A DNA stretch of 64,000 nt, taken from a virus. Lineage: Duplodnaviria; Caudoviricetes. A program made the translations under genes and the position numbers. The notes under the pieces were generated by a model. It worked only from the letters and a program-made list of their open reading frames with translations, was not told the origin of the DNA and made no database searches. Positions 7,135 through 13,486 of this stretch are shown here, in pieces. Location of the stretch: positions 7,536-71,535 of the IMG/VR virus record IMGVR_UViG_3300033072_000208. The stretch is one strand, 5' to 3'. Numbering within the stretch: position 1 is the stretch's first letter; every line of letters begins with the position of its first letter.

Positions 7135-8100
7135 TTAGAATGGAATCGAGTCAAAATCGTCAAAATCATCATCAGGAGCCTTGTTTGTTGATGGCTTCTG
7201 TTCTGGCTTTGTATCTTTCTGAGCATCACCGTCTTCATTCTTGTAGCGAATAGCTTCCACTTGCTTCTGGAGAGCAGAACCTTCCCAATTGGAAGCGAGG
7301 CTACAAGTGTTTAGGACATGGGCACGAACTTCTTTCACAGCCTGCTCATCATTTGATTTGTTCATTTGAATCAAAAGAGGAGTGGTTTTGATTTCAGGGG
7401 CAGCTTGACCACGACCTAGAGCACCAACAAAGTTGATATATTCTGTGTAATAACTCTTGCCGTCTTTACCTTCCTTGAAGAACACCTGCGTGGTGAATTG
7501 GAAAGCCTTACCGAGTAGTTTGTCAATGTCCTTAGGAGCAAACACTTCTCCGGGCTTAATCATCTTGTCAGCAACAGCCATCTTGTAAAACAGATGTTTC
7601 TGGTCAAAGCCCCAATCACCAAGTTTCTTATTGACCTTTAGTGGAGTTGGCCGTGCAACAACCATCTTACCCAGCGTGGTATTATAAAACTGTCCGCCAA
7701 GCCACAGACGAAGAGGTTTGGGATCTGAATTACCGAAGAACTGCCCCTTGTCGATCATGATGTCTGGGAAATCGACCGCAACTGCAACACACTGTACAGG
7801 CTTTTGAGGCCAGCACTTAAACCGCACTTGTTTCTTGCTTTGCTGATCAAAGCCATCCTTAAAATAGGTGTTAGGATTCTTAGCAAACTCTTCCTTCTCA
7901 TCGTTCTCGTTGCCGGTGAAAACAACTTCAGCGTCTGGTTGATTCTGAGTGCCAAGATCAACAATCATCGACACATAGCCTACGAGAGTTTCACGGTCTT
8001 GAAGACCAGCAGTTTCCACAACATACTTATTCAGTTCATCATACTGGACTACTTGTTTGCTTTCTTTTTGGCTTTGCTGGCTACCATATACATCAAACAT
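7135..8100 (-). CDS. ssb: single-stranded DNA-binding protein
   Basis: Acidic C-terminal tail DDDFDDFDSIPF; lies in the replication cluster. Confidence 0.7.
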   Translation of the reverse strand: MFDVYGSQQSQKESKQVVQYDELNKYVVETAGLQDRETLVGYVSMIVDLGTQNQPDAEVVFTGNENDEKEEFAKNPNTYFKDGFDQQSKKQVRFKCWPQKPVQCVAVAVDFPDIMIDKGQFFGNSDPKPLRLWLGGQFYNTTLGKMVVARPTPLKVNKKLGDWGFDQKHLFYKMAVADKMIKPGEVFAPKDIDKLLGKAFQFTTQVFFKEGKDGKSYYTEYINFVGALGRGQAAPEIKTTPLLIQMNKSNDEQAVKEVRAHVLNTCSLASNWEGSALQKQVEAIRYKNEDGDAQKDTKPEQKPSTNKAPDDDFDDFDSIPF

Positions 8101-8168
8101 ATTTATATTCCTTTTAAAATTAACTCTTTCTTACGAGTCTTACACTCAGGATCTATCAGACAATCAAA

Positions 8169-8333
8169 TCATCGCACCTCCACAGTTGGCACATATTTAA
8201 CGATAGTGATGTTGTGTTGAAGACCACCATAATTACGTTTGTGTTTTCGAGCAATATCCCGAGTCTCGCACAGACGAATTACAGACTTGGTATTCTTATT
8301 ATATACAGCCCAAAGCGATTCACGAATTTTCAT
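8169..8333 (-). CDS. hypothetical 54-aa basic protein
   Basis: Hand translation MKIRESLWAVYNKNTKSVIRLCETRDIARKHKRNYGG...; RBS AGGAG. Confidence 0.55.
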   Translation of the reverse strand: MKIRESLWAVYNKNTKSVIRLCETRDIARKHKRNYGGLQHNITIVKYVPTVEVR

Positions 8334-8376
8334 CTTCTCTCCTTACGTTAAACAACTATACATGATCCTGTAAGAG

Positions 8377-8464
8377 TAGTGGTGCCCGGAGTCGAACCGA
8401 GATTAGCCGATTATCTGTCGCTACGAGGTATAAGCTCGCCGTTTTACCATTAAACTACACCACT
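8377..8464 (-). tRNA. tRNA-Ile(UAU) with a long variable arm
   Basis: Acceptor AGTGGTG/CACCACT; anticodon stem GCGAG/CTCGT with loop CT-TAT-AC; 21-nt variable region; T-arm CTCGG-TTCGACT-CCGGG; no encoded CCA. Confidence 0.78.
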
Positions 8465-8470
8465 TTTGTT

Positions 8471-8546
8471 TGGCGACCACGGAAAGATTCCAACTTTCAC
8501 CTGAGATTTTAGAAGAATCTGGCTCTTGCATTTAAGCTACGTGGTC
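8471..8546 (-). tRNA. tRNA-Arg(UCU)
   Basis: GACCACG/CGTGGTC; AGATT-CTTCTAA-AATCT; atypical T-loop TTGGAAT; encoded CCA. Confidence 0.82.
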
Positions 8547-8557
8547 AATTTCTTTAA

Positions 8558-8700
8558 TGGTTACAAAGAAGATCACTCACCGTCACCGGGGATGCCGTTA
8601 GAGTCTGGTTTCATCAGCATGGGCCTTTTCCTAGGTATGTGTTCCAGAGGGCGCCTTGGCAACACAATTCCTATCCCACTCTAGTGATCTTCTCTGTAAC
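8558..8700 (-). ncRNA. candidate structured small RNA within the tRNA array
   Basis: 18-bp terminal stem GTTACAGAGAAGATCACT/AGTGATCTTCTTTGTAAC (one G-U pair), internal hairpins, 3' end reads ...GTAACCA. Confidence 0.55.
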
Positions 8701-8709
8701 TCTCAAAGT

Positions 8710-8886
8710 TCAGTCATAATAGTTGCCTTTTGGTACAATGTCAATAACTTCTTCACCAGATGCAATCTTTTGTTTAGCCTTGTGACGGTATTTACGTTCG
8801 TCGTATTTCTTCATAAACTGCCCATGCTTTGTTCTTTTACCAAATGTGCAATGACGGCATGAACAGGATTTAGGGGTTGCTTTCAT
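8710..8886 (-). CDS. hypothetical 58-aa basic protein (CSCRHC)
   Basis: Hand translation MKATPKSCSCRHCTFGKRTKHGQFMKKYDERKYRHKAKQKIASGEEVIDIVPKGNYYD; ATGA overlap with the upstream gene. Confidence 0.55.
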   Translation of the reverse strand: MKATPKSCSCRHCTFGKRTKHGQFMKKYDERKYRHKAKQKIASGEEVIDIVPKGNYYD

Positions 8887-9248
8887 TTACTTCTCAACCT
8901 CAAGCTATAAATAAGAGGTAACACCAGCAACAAAAGACTGCTCGGCTCAGGCACTGTATTTACCACAGGGTGTTCCGTATAGAAATCAGGGATAACCTCA
9001 CAATCCTTTCCAAGCCCAACACAGGGAGGGATATTCACCCATTTATACTGAATAAATGTGTTATCTGTGATTTCCGGCCTAACAGTGTATGCCGCGCTGT
9101 ATTCCACCCTATCTTCTGAAAGGATGACCAGAAATAGAATGAGCCACAGAACAAATACAAATCCGACGCTACACAGGAACAACTTCAGTGCAAACCTATG
9201 GTTGCTTCTAAGCACCTTCATAACTATCCTCGGCAATGTATGCTGCAC
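8883..9248 (-). CDS. PEP-CTERM sorting-domain protein
   Basis: C-terminus NTVPEPSS-LLLLVLPLIYSL-RLRSK = VPEP + TM helix + basic tail; N-terminal hydrophobic segment. Confidence 0.8.
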   Translation of the reverse strand: MQHTLPRIVMKVLRSNHRFALKLFLCSVGFVFVLWLILFLVILSEDRVEYSAAYTVRPEITDNTFIQYKWVNIPPCVGLGKDCEVIPDFYTEHPVVNTVPEPSSLLLLVLPLIYSLRLRSK

Positions 9249-9270
9249 AGAGTCAGTATTACTATAAATC

Positions 9271-9355
9271 TGGTACGGGTAAAGGGACTCGAACCCTTAC
9301 GCCATATGGCGACAGATTTTAAGTCTGTTGTGACTACCAATTCCACCATACCCGC
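9271..9355 (-). tRNA. tRNA-Leu(UAA)
   Basis: GCGGGTA/TACCCGT; ACAGA-CTTAAAA-TCTGT; long V-arm; TTCGA; CCA. Confidence 0.92.
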
Positions 9356-9360
9356 ATTAC

Positions 9361-9434
9361 TGGTGCTCCCAGTCTGAATCGAACAGACGATATTGGGTTA
9401 CAAAGCCAAGGTTATACCACTTAACTATAGGAGC
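9361..9434 (-). tRNA. tRNA-Thr(UGU)
   Basis: GCTCCTA/TGGGAGC; loop TT-TGT-AA; TTCGA; CCA. Confidence 0.85.
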
Positions 9435-9503
9435 AAAATAAAGTTATTGGGCTTGGGGTTTAACCACAAATGATTATTCCTTTCCACTCTCCAATAACTT
9501 AAT

Positions 9504-9596
9504 TGGTGGGTGCCCTTGGATTCGAACCAAGAACGTTTACCACGAGGGGACGGATTTACAGTCCGCCGATGCACACGCCATAGCATCAAGACACCC
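9504..9596 (-). tRNA. tRNA-Tyr(GUA)
   Basis: GGGTGTC/GGCACCC; GCGGA-CTGTAAA-TCCGT; long V-arm; TTCGA; CCA. Confidence 0.9.
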
Positions 9597-9606
9597 ATTT
9601 AAAACT

Positions 9607-9694
9607 TGGCGGGAGAGGTGAGATTCGAACTCACGGGGGATTTCTCCCCGACGATTTTCAAGACCGCTGCCTTAAACCACTCAGCCACTCTCCC
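9607..9694 (-). tRNA. tRNA-Ser(UGA)
   Basis: GGGAGAG/CTCTCCC; GCGGT-CTTGAAA-ATCGT; long V-arm; TTCGA; CCA. Confidence 0.92.
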
Positions 9695-9701
9695 TTTGTT
9701 C

Positions 9702-9745
9702 TGGCTCCTGAGCTTGGGATCACTACCGATTGAGCCATTCCGGCA
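9702..9745 (-). pseudogene. internally deleted tRNA remnant
   Basis: 5'-half-like TGCCGGAATGGCTCAATCGGTAG joined directly to 3'-end-like GATCCCAAGCTCAGGAGCCA; no anticodon arm. Confidence 0.45.
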
Positions 9746-9759
9746 ATAAAATCCGACCT

Positions 9760-9966
9760 CTACTCATCCACCAAATCTAAACAACTTTCTGTCATGCAAA
9801 TCGCCAGATGAGTTGCTGTCGGCTCGTCTAGCAAAACGATGTAAAAATCTGTTACGTCTACAACCGACGTTCCTTGGATTGTCCCGAGTGCCCCTTCTAG
9901 GGGATCGCCACCAACGCGGCGAATTACTACTCGGTCACGCAGTTTAAAGTTTTTCTTCGCAATCAT
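9760..9966 (-). CDS. hypothetical protein (SH3-like pattern)
   Basis: ORF track; KLRDRVVIR...GALGTIQG...YIVLLD. Confidence 0.55.
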   Translation of the reverse strand: MIAKKNFKLRDRVVIRRVGGDPLEGALGTIQGTSVVDVTDFYIVLLDEPTATHLAICMTESCLDLVDE

Positions 9967-9988
9967 TTTATCGATTCCCCAGTTGAAA

Positions 9989-10022
9989 TGGATGCGGGCG
10001 AAAGAGTCTAACTTTCTCTCAT
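9989..10022 (-). tRNA. 3' half of a split tRNA(CAU): T-arm, acceptor strand and CCA
   Basis: GAAAG-TTAGACT-CTTTC GCCCGCA T CCA; the acceptor strand pairs with TGCGGGT at 10528-10534. Confidence 0.72.
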
Positions 10023-10481
10023 CTACCCACTTGTTCTTTTAACAAAAGCTTCTAGATAATTCCTAATAGTGTCTAACTTTGGTATAACGGTTATTGGGTC
10101 ATCGCCTAACATACCTATAGCAGTGTTGCAGTTTCTACACAATAATCCTCTCACGACTTGTGTTTTGTGACAGTGATCTACACATATGTTTTCTTTAGAA
10201 CCACAAACCTGACAAGCAGGATCTTCAGAGTTGAATAGTTCGGCTACCTCTTCATAACTAACTCCAAGCCCCCAAGCCTTTACCCTTAGCGGATTAGACT
10301 TCTTATAATTTTTTACAGATTCCAAATGTTTAGATGTGTTTTTAGGATACCACACGGTACGAACATATAAATTATGACAAGATTTGCACTTACTTGAGTG
10401 TCCATCTTTCGCCGCTGTCTTTTTGCTAAAGGCGCTATAAGGAAGAACCTTATCACAAGAACTGCAAACCTTTTCTTCCAC
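10023..10481 (-). CDS. zinc-finger + endonuclease VII-type HNH homing endonuclease, inserted in a tRNA gene
   Basis: Start reassigned to GTG after RBS GGAGG; CSSC..PYSAF.K...CKSC; CQVC...VDHCHKTQVVRGLLCRNCNTAIG. Confidence 0.85.
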   Translation of the reverse strand: MEEKVCSSCDKVLPYSAFSKKTAAKDGHSSKCKSCHNLYVRTVWYPKNTSKHLESVKNYKKSNPLRVKAWGLGVSYEEVAELFNSEDPACQVCGSKENICVDHCHKTQVVRGLLCRNCNTAIGMLGDDPITVIPKLDTIRNYLEAFVKRTSG

Positions 10482-10495
10482 AACATCCCCTCCGA

Positions 10496-10534
10496 CTGGC
10501 TTATGAGGCCGGTGTCTAACCACTAGAACCCGCA
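10496..10534 (-). tRNA. 5' half of a split tRNA(CAU) (Met or Ile2)
   Basis: TGCGGGT, short D-arm TCTA-GTGGT-TAGA, anticodon arm CCGGC-CTCATAA-GCCAG (one C-A mismatch). Confidence 0.72.
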
Positions 10535-10551
10535 ATAACTTACAAATCTCA

Positions 10552-10627
10552 TGGAGCGGAGTGTCGGACTCGAACCGACGACAATCTGATTGGAAATCAG
10601 GAATTCTACCAACTGAACTAACCCCGC
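10552..10627 (-). tRNA. tRNA-Gly(UCC)
   Basis: GCGGGGT/ACTCCGC; loop TT-TCC-AA; TTCGA; discriminator U; CCA. Confidence 0.92.
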
Positions 10628-10639
10628 AGTGTGAAACAC

Positions 10640-10668
10640 ATCCTACATCATTTTTAAAGTCTTGTCAA
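10640..10668 (-). promoter_or_regulatory. sigma70-like promoter inside the tRNA array
   Basis: TTGACA-17nt-TAGGAT. Confidence 0.65.
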
Positions 10669-10682
10669 GCATTATTTAGACA

Positions 10683-10753
10683 TGGTGGCCGGGGATTCGA
10701 ACCCTCTCCTCCCTCCTTATGAGGGTGTTCTGGCCTATAAAACTTCACCACCA
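10683..10753 (-). pseudogene. degenerate tRNA-like element, probable CAU anticodon
   Basis: TGGTGGT/GCCACCA acceptor; GGG-TTCGAAT-CCC; contains CTCATAA but the anticodon and T stems are imperfect; no CCA. Confidence 0.5.
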
Positions 10754-10758
10754 TGCTC

Positions 10759-11086
10759 ACTAGGCGTGCTATCACGCCAAAGGGAACTTCGACCTTACCG
10801 TCTCCGGGGTGTCTCCGTACTTACCATGTGGCTCATGCGCAACTCGTTCTCAGGGAAGCTATCCCGTTGCTTCGGCGGGTAGCGAATCCGCCTTGCTGTA
10901 ACCAATGGCCGGTGAGGTATCCGTTCAGCGGGACTCAGCCACCGAACTACCCATTCTCCGTTTACTTTCCTTACCACGGCACTATTGAACTTTCCAGCAG
11001 ATTGATGCCCTTCTCTGCTGTACAACGTCACTACATGCACTTGTCCCACTCATTAAAGATGGCTGCCTTTGAGCCAACTACCTAGC
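10759..11086 (-). ncRNA. candidate ~330-nt structured RNA at the head of the tRNA operon
   Basis: GC-rich; no RBS-led ORF; closing stem GCTAGGT/GCCTAGT; multiple hairpins; lies between a promoter and the first tRNA-like element. Confidence 0.5.
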
Positions 11087-11121
11087 GATAAAACTACCAC
11101 CACTTCTCAACTCATAACTAC

Positions 11122-11150
11122 ATTGTAGAGCATACTGCGCAGATTGTCAA
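11122..11150 (-). promoter_or_regulatory. sigma70-like promoter of the ncRNA/tRNA operon
   Basis: TTGACA-17nt-TACAAT. Confidence 0.75.
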
Positions 11151-11158
11151 GCGTTTTA

Positions 11159-13486
11159 TTAATGACACTGCCCCCAATTTAGGCCAGGAACCCACTCGAA
11201 ACCAAGTTCCACGTTAAGGTGTAGGAACCTGTTTGCCTGTTTGATGCCCGCCTCAATCGCCTCAACTGGCGCGGTCTTATAGCCGATGTATGGTCCCTTG
11301 CTGCCATGTCCAATAGCACTGCAACCATCGACCAAAGCAGCCCTTGCTTCATCCTCTGTTTTGAAAGCCTTCACCTTCATGAGAGAAGGATGGACAGCAA
11401 ACTGTTGTTCGTCGTGCATGTGAATCATAAACCACACCTTCGGTTGATCCTTAGAGTGCTTTAGAGGATCACCAAGAAGGTTACGATCTTCTAACCATTT
11501 TGCAAGATACACAGCAGACCACTTTGCGCTAATAGCCCCACCAGACTGAAACAGCACATTGATTAGTGAGTGCTTTGACCGTGTGTTAAGAAGACGACCA
11601 TCCAAACCTCGGATATGCTTTTTACCATAAGACTCCCACTCTTGTTCAACAGATTCTTTAAGTTCTTTCAGTGCTGGCACAGCCTCCCAATACTCATTGA
11701 AAAGGCGCTTGCCTTCGGCTTCTGTGATGCCTAGCATCTTAGCTAACTTCTTAGGCTGTGCTCCGTAAATGGCTGCATATGAAAATGATTTTGCTGCACT
11801 TCGATCAATACCAAGTTTCTTTGCATTGATACTGTGAATATCGTTCGGCTTTTCAGCCACAAGTGCTTCAGCAAGAGATTTACCATCTTTATATGGGATG
11901 ACGTAATGCCCCATAATACGGGCCTCAAGGCTGGCAAAATCGTAGCCTAGCTGCCACAAACCATCTCCACTGCCAAACAATCCACGCATGTTCTCCCCAT
12001 ACAGTGATGTAACACGAGGGATGTTGCACACAATACGGTGTCTATATCGCCCTGTGTTGGCTCCAAGTGTGTCAGCAGGCGTTGGGATACGTCCATCGCT
12101 ACGAACGACGCTTAGAAAGCCTGTGACTGGTTCTCCATCTTCATCAACAACACCACCAGCAATAGAGTTCTTACGGTGACGGTAGGTGTAGTAATGAACA
12201 ACATCCTTCACAAAAGCAGCTCTCTCGCCAAGAGCAACAAGATTCGGGCAGATTTCCTTTTCAACACCAACGGTAAGTTTAGGTGTTGTCGGAAGGAAAA
12301 TAGGTTTTTGTGCTTGCATCTTGTGGTATTTCATTTGTGGCTTTGTTTCTTCAAGTTTAGCTAGGAGGTATTTTTTAAGATTTTTTTCGGTAGTTCCAAG
12401 ATGCTCAAGCCGGAGATTCTTGAATACAGAGTTCAGTGTTTGATCTACATACCTGTCAATGCTCTCCTTGATTTTATCTACACTCTTAATTGTTTTGTCA
12501 GTATTCTTTGTAATGTCACGTTCTTTAATCTCTGTCGGAACCCATCCCAAACTCAGCAGGTATGCCTTAACTGTGTCAATGTCCTCAATAGTCGCATCTT
12601 CTTCGTCAAGAAGTGGCTGCTCATAATCAATTGGAAAACGATTACCTTGAAACACAACATCAGCGCCATCCAGTGTAGCACCAACCTTCTCAAGCCACTT
12701 AGAAAACACGGCACTCACATCGCCATCTTTCTTAAACTTGATTTTTGGCATAACGTAGAACGATGCAGCGCCTTTGGTCATCTTCTTCTTAGGTAGAAGC
12801 GGATTAACACTGGCCGCAATGCGACTCATGTTGTTAGTAAGATCTTCAACACAGAGTTTAGCAAGGTCTGTATCAAACTTAAAACCAAACAATTCTTGTT
12901 TTAGTGTAAGGTCAGCAAGTTTCAACTCCATGCTGTACGGAACAGACCAATCGTGGTTGCCCTGCTCGTTAAGCAGTTCTTTGTAAATGTCAGCATTAAC
13001 CGCTGTATCTTGAATACAGTAATCAAGCATTTCTTGACTGAATGCAGACCAATCTGAAAAATCGCCCTTATAATTTCCAAGGCGCTTACCCCATGCCTCA
13101 AGGCTATGCCCACCAAAACGATCAGCATTAAGAAGTTTAGACCAAAGAAGCGTGTCTGTGATCTTCACAGGTCGCCCAAACACTTCAGCAACACAATCCG
13201 CACCGGGATAATTGATCGTGTAGTCAAAAACACCATAAAGCTGTAGCACAGGTAAGTCGAATGCAACCAAGTTATGCCCTACAAGTTCGGTGCATTTACG
13301 AAGGGCGTGCTTCATATTGTCGTAAGTAATTTCATCGCCAACAAGCGTCTTGACAGCTTGGCTATCAATGTGGCGAATAACAACACAATGGACTTTATAA
13401 TCTGGCTTGATTTTGTACGGCATCTCGTTGTAGTTGAGAGCGTTTTGCAACAAGTTGGATGATTCGATGTCAATAACAAACCGCAT
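11159..13486 (-). CDS. family A DNA polymerase with 3'-5' exonuclease (T7 gp5-like)
   Basis: Exo DIESS, GHNLVAFD, YCIQD; Pol YDFASLEAR, RSAAKSFSYAAIYG, HMHDE; start reassigned to MRFVID using RBS GGAGG. Confidence 0.95.
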   Translation of the reverse strand: MRFVIDIESSNLLQNALNYNEMPYKIKPDYKVHCVVIRHIDSQAVKTLVGDEITYDNMKHALRKCTELVGHNLVAFDLPVLQLYGVFDYTINYPGADCVAEVFGRPVKITDTLLWSKLLNADRFGGHSLEAWGKRLGNYKGDFSDWSAFSQEMLDYCIQDTAVNADIYKELLNEQGNHDWSVPYSMELKLADLTLKQELFGFKFDTDLAKLCVEDLTNNMSRIAASVNPLLPKKKMTKGAASFYVMPKIKFKKDGDVSAVFSKWLEKVGATLDGADVVFQGNRFPIDYEQPLLDEEDATIEDIDTVKAYLLSLGWVPTEIKERDITKNTDKTIKSVDKIKESIDRYVDQTLNSVFKNLRLEHLGTTEKNLKKYLLAKLEETKPQMKYHKMQAQKPIFLPTTPKLTVGVEKEICPNLVALGERAAFVKDVVHYYTYRHRKNSIAGGVVDEDGEPVTGFLSVVRSDGRIPTPADTLGANTGRYRHRIVCNIPRVTSLYGENMRGLFGSGDGLWQLGYDFASLEARIMGHYVIPYKDGKSLAEALVAEKPNDIHSINAKKLGIDRSAAKSFSYAAIYGAQPKKLAKMLGITEAEGKRLFNEYWEAVPALKELKESVEQEWESYGKKHIRGLDGRLLNTRSKHSLINVLFQSGGAISAKWSAVYLAKWLEDRNLLGDPLKHSKDQPKVWFMIHMHDEQQFAVHPSLMKVKAFKTEDEARAALVDGCSAIGHGSKGPYIGYKTAPVEAIEAGIKQANRFLHLNVELGFEWVPGLNWGQCH

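Follow-up and report, generated by a model that had tools for sequence, protein, structure and literature searches.

A homing endonuclease gene that belongs to the Endonuclease VII family, is free-standing and lacks an intron probably (we put this at about 0.8) occupies the variable loop of a phage tRNA(CAU) gene, where it would spread by homing and where the tRNA would have been inactivated. Homing endonuclease genes of phages are known between genes, in introns and in inteins, and rarely inside protein genes; our literature search turned up no account of a nuclease gene placed, without an intron, within the body of a tRNA gene. The locus was encountered in the IMG/VR record IMGVR_UViG_3300033072_000208, of which positions 7,536–71,535 form the 64,000-nt stretch analysed here (the window), most of a 71.5-kb viral contig with a completeness of 76%. 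The phage is uncultured, and its family-A DNA polymerase shares 44% identity with that of the nearest cultured phage.

In the mechanism that we propose, the element would spread by homing into uninterrupted alleles of the tRNA gene in co-infecting relatives. Once in place, the nuclease gene would use the transcription of the tRNA gene, its ribosome-binding site deriving from a duplicate of the tRNA variable region and its stop codon abutting the second copy. The insertion would split the presumed nuclease target, and carrier genomes would therefore be immune to cutting; it would also inactivate the tRNA. Each transfer would place the nuclease gene in a fresh allele, the halves of which would look tRNA-like and then decay. 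Both the cutting of the intact allele by the nuclease and the absence of a mature tRNA product are steps that we infer. The locus offers a clean natural system, with a known empty site and at least ten occupied allele types, and a decay series can be seen that runs from intact halves through a broken anticodon stem to a lost 5' half.

Layout of the interrupted gene

The window carries a tRNA array on the minus strand, downstream of the polymerase gene, as located with ARAGORN and Rfam. Within it, a split unit of 546 nt sits on the minus strand between tRNA-Gly (10552–10627) and a 68-codon ORF (9760–9966). An earlier, sequence-only reading had described this unit as a tRNA(CAU) gene whose variable loop is interrupted by a bare ORF. 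That description is correct in layout and coordinates, each element being found on the minus-strand reading. The features are listed below in window positions.

10640–10668, minus strand: sigma-70-type promoter (TTGACA, 17 nt, TAGGAT) in front of tRNA-Gly (10552–10627)
10496–10534, minus strand: 5' half of the tRNA(CAU) gene, 39 nt; 38 of 39 bases match the intact tRNA L085:6212-6284
10534–10528, minus strand: 5' strand of the acceptor stem, TGCGGGT in the minus-strand reading
10527–10515, minus strand: short D arm, which recurs in many intact phage tRNAs
10512–10496, minus strand: anticodon arm with loop CTCATAA and anticodon CAT at 10505–10503; A10497 gives a C·A mismatch
10482–10495, minus strand: 5' junction; a degenerate variable-region copy from the tRNA, now holding the nuclease Shine–Dalgarno sequence GGAGG (10493–10489)
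10023–10481, minus strand: Endonuclease VII-family ORF of 152 codons, GTG start at 10481, TAG stop at 10025–10023
10017–10022, minus strand: 3' junction, 6 nt after the stop, a second copy of the variable region (ATGAGA); A10019 replaces a G that is invariant in intact alleles
9989–10016, minus strand: 3' half of the tRNA gene; 30 of 32 bases match L085:6253-6284
10016–10000, minus strand: T stem-loop, with A10009 in the loop replacing the invariant C56
9999–9993, minus strand: 3' strand of the acceptor stem, GCCCGCA, followed by the discriminator T (9992) and CCA (9991–9989)
1–45 and upstream, at the left edge (G000:C1:7098-7580), minus strand: Rnl2-type RNA ligase domain (PF09414)

The two ends of the unit form an acceptor stem of seven pairs, six of them Watson–Crick and one U·G. 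The ORF fills almost all of the space between the halves, leaving only 14 non-coding nucleotides on its 5' side and six on its 3' side. The earlier judgement that there is too little room here for an intron scaffold stands: a search with Rfam at E ≤ 1 over 8000–11300 returned no intron family, and no other RNA family in the split-gene stretch. The split gene in the window itself is not called as a tRNA by Rfam or by ARAGORN. The intact allele reads ATTGGGA directly before the T stem, and interrupted alleles hold one copy of this variable region, 6–7 nt in length, on each side of the insert; the upstream copy provides the ribosome-binding site of the nuclease and the downstream copy is abutted by its stop codon. 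That two such halves lie here is not a product of chance, because a syntenic contig, L085, holds the same tRNA uninterrupted. The promoter at 10640–10668 probably drives the split tRNA and nuclease unit as well as the tRNA in front of which it stands.

Two other readings of the nuclease frame were rejected. A start at ATG 10486 is out of frame, which leaves GTG 10481 as the start codon. A 170-codon, TTG-started ORF that reads through the tRNA half was discarded because compensatory stem changes would be non-synonymous in it, and because the conserved ribosome-binding site and GTG lie downstream of its start.

The zinc-finger/Endonuclease VII-type assignment in the sequence-only reading agrees with the profile searches, in which the protein matches Pfam Endonuclease_7 (PF02945) with 56 bits against a cut-off of 23.6 (3.9e-15) and PHROG 2633 'endonuclease VII' at 5e-29. 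Its N-terminal part carries a zinc-finger-like CxxC...CxxC arrangement, and its C-terminal part is an Endonuclease VII (beta-beta-alpha-Me) nuclease with a DHCH...N motif that aligns to Hpy99I. Among the nuclease alleles dN/dS is 0.15–0.43, a range by which the gene is under purifying selection; with the catalytic motif also intact, the nuclease is predicted to be active. At the nucleotide level the locus matched nothing in the phage collection, and protein searches gave two clusters of close homologues, at 95% and 86% amino-acid identity. More distant homologues in viral contigs (L031–L039; 29–43% identity) have no adjoining tRNA remnants.

The empty site and its tRNA family

Uninterrupted alleles in related phages were what the sequence-only reading had proposed to look for, and one was found at the same site in L085. 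To collect the intact genes, viral and metagenome contigs were searched with a pattern that combined both acceptor strands with the CAU loop and had two gaps. A strict 5'-half pattern had no match in the same viral or metagenome contigs, and a pattern for the T arm of the 3' half gave unrelated matches only. L085 is a 7,962-bp contig that is syntenic with the window on both sides of the locus at 82–95% nucleotide identity, and at the syntenic site (L085:6212-6284) it carries an uninterrupted tRNA(CAU) gene. Its similarity to the window ends at 10498 and resumes at 10021, which are the exact edges of the insert. ARAGORN calls the L085 gene tRNA-Met(CAU), and it scores 31.9 bits with Rfam RF00005 against a threshold of 29. 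The only difference between the window and L085 in the 5' half is a G-to-A change that creates the C·A mismatch. The two close relatives are thus polymorphic for presence and absence of the insert at one site, which is empty in L085 and occupied in the window.

The L085 gene belongs to a family of intact tRNA genes of roughly 70 nt with at least 60 distinct sequences (L085:6212-6284 and about 60 loci within L057–L190). Its members have in common the acceptor stem TGCGGGT/GCCCGCA, a D arm in which a D stem of 3–4 bp starts at nucleotide 8 and closes a 5-nt D loop, the CAU loop and a variable region ending in GG(G/A)A. The halves in the window fit these features apart from the T-loop C and a single G of the variable region. 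When 31 intact members are aligned, the cloverleaf pairs in 97.4% of cells, 12 pairs are changed on both sides, and the covariation score is 0.507 vs 0.139 when shuffled and <0.11 with slid partners. An anticodon arm identical over all 17 nt, C·A mismatch included, occurs in 22 viral contigs, and in 15 of these 22 it lies in a tRNA called by ARAGORN. The short D arm and the C·A mismatch had been taken as signs of decay in the sequence-only reading; both are normal in the intact family, and so neither can be counted as such.

The family appears to be specific to phages, since the short-D-arm type is absent from the 185,579 prokaryote genomes that were scanned. That scan gave 28 pattern matches, none of the short-D-arm type, of which about six are tRNA-like and the remainder look like chance. 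Nucleotides 2–6 and 67–71 of the short-D-arm family match those of the E. coli initiator tRNA. A sub-family can also be recognized in which the T loop AGCGTTA co-varies with the D loop ATAG.

Occupied alleles and the fate of the tRNA

A further 21 interrupted loci that encode close homologues of the nuclease were fetched, which brings the sample to 22 with the window; all 21 lie in phage tRNA arrays. They fall into two lineages. Lineage 1 consists of the window, L043, L051, L052, L191, L053, L054, L195, L192–L194, L196 and L197, and comprises eight allele types, in each of which all four stems are kept; five different T stems, each perfectly paired, and two different anticodon stems are represented. 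Lineage 2, at 86% amino-acid identity, consists of L044, L045, L055, L056 and L046–L050. The 3' strand of the anticodon stem has been lost in L044, L045, L055 and L056. In L046–L050 the whole 5' half is gone and the nuclease gene is intact; their similarity to L044 starts about 12 nt before the nuclease start, and the T arm, the 3' acceptor strand and CCA are retained. These last three elements are present in 22/22 interrupted loci. A separate 5' half was looked for elsewhere in L046–L048 and was not found. In L195, a second and unrelated homing endonuclease gene with HNH_3 and AP2 domains (L195:86-556) lies just upstream of the split tRNA unit.

Comparison of the nuclease gene with its flanks was made for four pairs of loci, given below as differences over positions compared.

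L052 vs L192: nuclease 0/459; 5' half 9/39; 3' half 2/29
L192 vs L196: nuclease 1/459; 5' half 9/39; 3' half 7/29
L052 vs L196: nuclease 1/459; 5' half 0/38; 3' half 7/29
L044 vs L055 (lineage 2): nuclease 5/463; 5' half 3/39; 3' half 5/28

The boundaries of exchange lie within a few nucleotides of the ORF. By these comparisons the nuclease gene and its flanks do not share a history, the pattern of recent homing or recombination into different intact alleles, and essentially identical nuclease genes occur in three different tRNA alleles, a sign that homing is ongoing in the environment. Where two strains carry an identical nuclease gene, a metagenome assembler may link the flank of one to that of the other; such chimeras could change which halves are paired with each other, but not the fact that different halves abut one nuclease gene.

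Movement between alleles bears directly on how the halves are to be read. Because the nuclease gene moves between alleles and the stems are inherited with each of them, intact-looking halves are no sign of function or of selection after insertion. For the same reason, the covariation of halves among interrupted alleles, which had been proposed as a check on function in the sequence-only reading, cannot separate function from recency. Lineage 2 moves between alleles carrying the anticodon-stem deletion along with it, so the element and the phages that carry it can persist without a working tRNA.

The tRNA of the window shows changes of its own. When its halves were joined in silico and aligned to 31 intact alleles, it departed from them at two columns that are invariant in 31/31, namely the variable-region G (A10019 in the window) and the third base of the T loop, C56 (A10009). 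Departures in the rest of lineage 1 are confined to a compensated pair or to a position at which intact alleles vary too. With the insert removed in silico, ARAGORN calls tRNA-Met for seven other lineage-1 alleles and for L085; it does not call the window's allele, nor two lineage-2 alleles. Observations that point against inactivation include two in the alleles themselves: the window's halves are ~96% identical to L085, compared with ~85% for the flanking DNA, and all eight lineage-1 allele types keep their four stems. Most likely the tRNA of the window is inactivated and is beginning to decay.

The closest cultured homologue of the window's nuclease gives a parallel to this locus. The best match in the phage collection, at 47% amino-acid identity, is 'gp96' of Aeromonas phage APT65 (OP491958; L030:2498-2956). 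Like the nuclease of the window, gp96 is encoded in a tRNA array, and its gene stops precisely where the variable arm of a tRNA gene meets the T stem; its stop codon overlaps the T stem and is followed by the 3' acceptor strand and CCA. What remains is the 3' end of a tRNA-Ser(GCU), a gene found whole in Aeromonas phage 4_4572 (MK813943; L229:845-929), and the same downstream ORF is found in both phages. The APT65 locus differs in its target, tRNA-Ser(GCU), and in that the 5' part of the tRNA is gone, no trace of it being found in the 5.4 kb examined. In the APT65 record gp96 is annotated as a hypothetical protein, and the tRNA-Ser remnant is unannotated. On homology, gp96 is a homing endonuclease of the Endonuclease VII type. 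Taken together with the window's nuclease, it indicates that members of this clade have landed more than once at the boundary of the variable region and the T arm, leaving wrecked tRNA genes behind, and suggests that the clade specializes on this part of tRNA genes. In annotation practice, fragments of tRNA genes that adjoin small nuclease ORFs in the tRNA arrays of phages should be read as the wrecks of invaded genes.

Alternative readings and known systems

The sequence-only reading had offered three functional interpretations, a tRNA intron that is spliced out, a two-piece tRNA and a tRNA–mRNA hybrid, and had kept simple pseudogenisation as its null model. None of the three is supported: lineage 2 persists after losing one strand of the anticodon stem or the entire 5' half, and the window is mutated at two invariant positions. 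The null model is the best reading. Three alternatives to our explanation nevertheless have to be weighed.

It is conceivable, although unlikely, that the tRNA halves are kept because they serve the mRNA of the nuclease. The transcript would then be a tRNA-framed mRNA rather than a decoding tRNA: its ends would pair as a minihelix of acceptor stem and T arm, the host's tRNA-processing enzymes, RNase P and those of 3' trimming, would define the transcript ends, and the paired ends would protect it from decay, all of which is compatible with inactivation of the tRNA. Minimum free-energy folds of the whole unit (546 nt in the window) do pair the ends as the 7-bp acceptor stem and the T arm at nine of the ten loci tested, the exception being L044, in which six of the seven acceptor pairs and no T arm are formed. 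This fold evidence is weak, however, because a GC-rich 7-bp terminal helix is expected in any energy-based fold. The retention of the T arm, 3' acceptor strand and CCA at every interrupted locus is also in line with such a role, as is a near-consensus promoter a few nucleotides upstream of the 5' half in L043, L044 and L045. Yet L046–L050 have no 5' half, so that a clamp is impossible there, and their nuclease gene is still intact; APT65 keeps a 3' remnant only. Homing, by renewing the halves rapidly, accounts for their intactness with no need of a function.

Still harder to sustain, and in our view very unlikely, is the idea that the interrupted gene continues to yield a working tRNA(CAU). 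Host nucleases would cut the nuclease transcript at both junctions, and the released halves would either be held together by the 7-bp acceptor stem and contacts between the D loop and T loop, or be sealed by a phage RNA ligase. The existence of such an enzyme, which the sequence-only reading had invoked, is borne out to the extent that a 333-codon open frame of the phage, ~10 kb from the split tRNA, contains an RNA ligase domain of the Rnl2 type (PF09414, 88 bits); the contig has no RtcB, and a match to an Rnl1-type ligase remained below threshold. Eight allele types keep the full cloverleaf and the variable region is duplicated, so that each half carries a full copy, and there is no sign of a replacement: a spare intact copy of the split tRNA was found neither in the 71.5-kb contig (76% complete) nor in the 21 interrupted loci, and no canonical tRNA-Met was found in that contig. 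Against these points, the intron core is absent, and in the sequence and its folds no complementarity of the kind that leader sequences would give was seen beyond the acceptor stem. No route is known by which bacteria or phages excise an insert from a tRNA variable loop. Lineage 2, moreover, spreads with the anticodon-stem strand deleted or the 5' half missing, the window is altered at the invariant T-loop C and the invariant variable-region G, and recent homing explains the intact-looking halves. If it were true, a working split tRNA would represent ribozyme-free tolerance of a selfish gene inside a tRNA of a bacterial virus.

That the whole 546-nt transcript acts as one molecule, either a tRNA with a giant variable arm or a tmRNA-like tRNA–mRNA hybrid that enters the ribosome, is scarcely credible: the ends fold as an acceptor stem and T arm and the variable region is the place where class II tRNAs tolerate extra arms, but ARAGORN finds no tmRNA in the window, the insert is a conserved protein-coding gene under purifying selection, and degraded alleles exist alongside the window's own mutations.

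The explanation that we prefer, an invasion of the tRNA gene by a free-standing nuclease gene, can be placed among several known arrangements. The tRNA-fMet gene of Synechocystis has in its anticodon loop a self-splicing group I intron with I-Ssp6803I, and there too a homing endonuclease is associated with a tRNA gene with a CAU anticodon; the locus in the window differs in having no ribozyme and in being interrupted at the variable loop. The split tRNA genes of Nanoarchaeum equitans have complementary leaders, which together make up the bulge-helix-bulge site on which the archaeal splicing endonuclease acts. Two tRNA halves are encoded apart in both cases, but nothing of the kind is visible in the window, and the host of its phage is bacterial.

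Among the closest described systems is SegB of phage T4, a free-standing GIY-YIG enzyme that is encoded between tRNA genes, cuts an intergenic site and mediates intronless homing (PMC2988022; Brok-Volchanskaya et al., 2008, PMC2330249). Both are free-standing nuclease genes in a phage tRNA cluster, with no intron and with a presence/absence polymorphism between related phages, and SegB biases the inheritance of the T4 tRNA region. The gene in the window differs in encoding an Endonuclease VII-type enzyme and in lying inside a tRNA gene, in its variable loop. Another is the ribonucleotide reductase 'genes in pieces' of Aeromonas phage Aeh1, in which mobE is inserted in nrdA (PMC7344957). As in the window, a homing endonuclease gene has been inserted directly in a gene with no splicing element, leaving two pieces. 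In Aeh1 the two protein pieces reassemble and function is kept, whereas the target in the window is a tRNA, no reassembly is seen and several alleles have decayed. Finally, 'enigmatic' introns were described in tRNA genes of Lak megaphages, where phage tRNA introns were stated to be previously unreported (Devoto et al., 2019, PMC6784885). These inserts, too, interrupt phage tRNA genes in some variants but not in others and fit no recognized intron class. They differ from the insert in the window, which is almost all nuclease ORF, in that no nuclease has been reported from them and their predicted positions were intron-like.

Two further observations concern the same array, upstream of the split unit. 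At 10681–10754 (minus strand) the window holds a degenerate tRNA-like gene that scores 22 bits with Rfam and has CTCATAA in an irregular anticodon arm; at this site its relatives (L085:5993-6062; L043:2357-2428) carry a tRNA with a 6-nt anticodon loop, which ARAGORN reports as 'tRNA-???' and Rfam scores at 48 bits. Between a near-consensus promoter (11150–11122) and the first tRNA lies a GC-rich stretch of ~330 nt without an ORF (10759–11086, minus strand), which is partly conserved in L085 and L043 at 76–86% identity.
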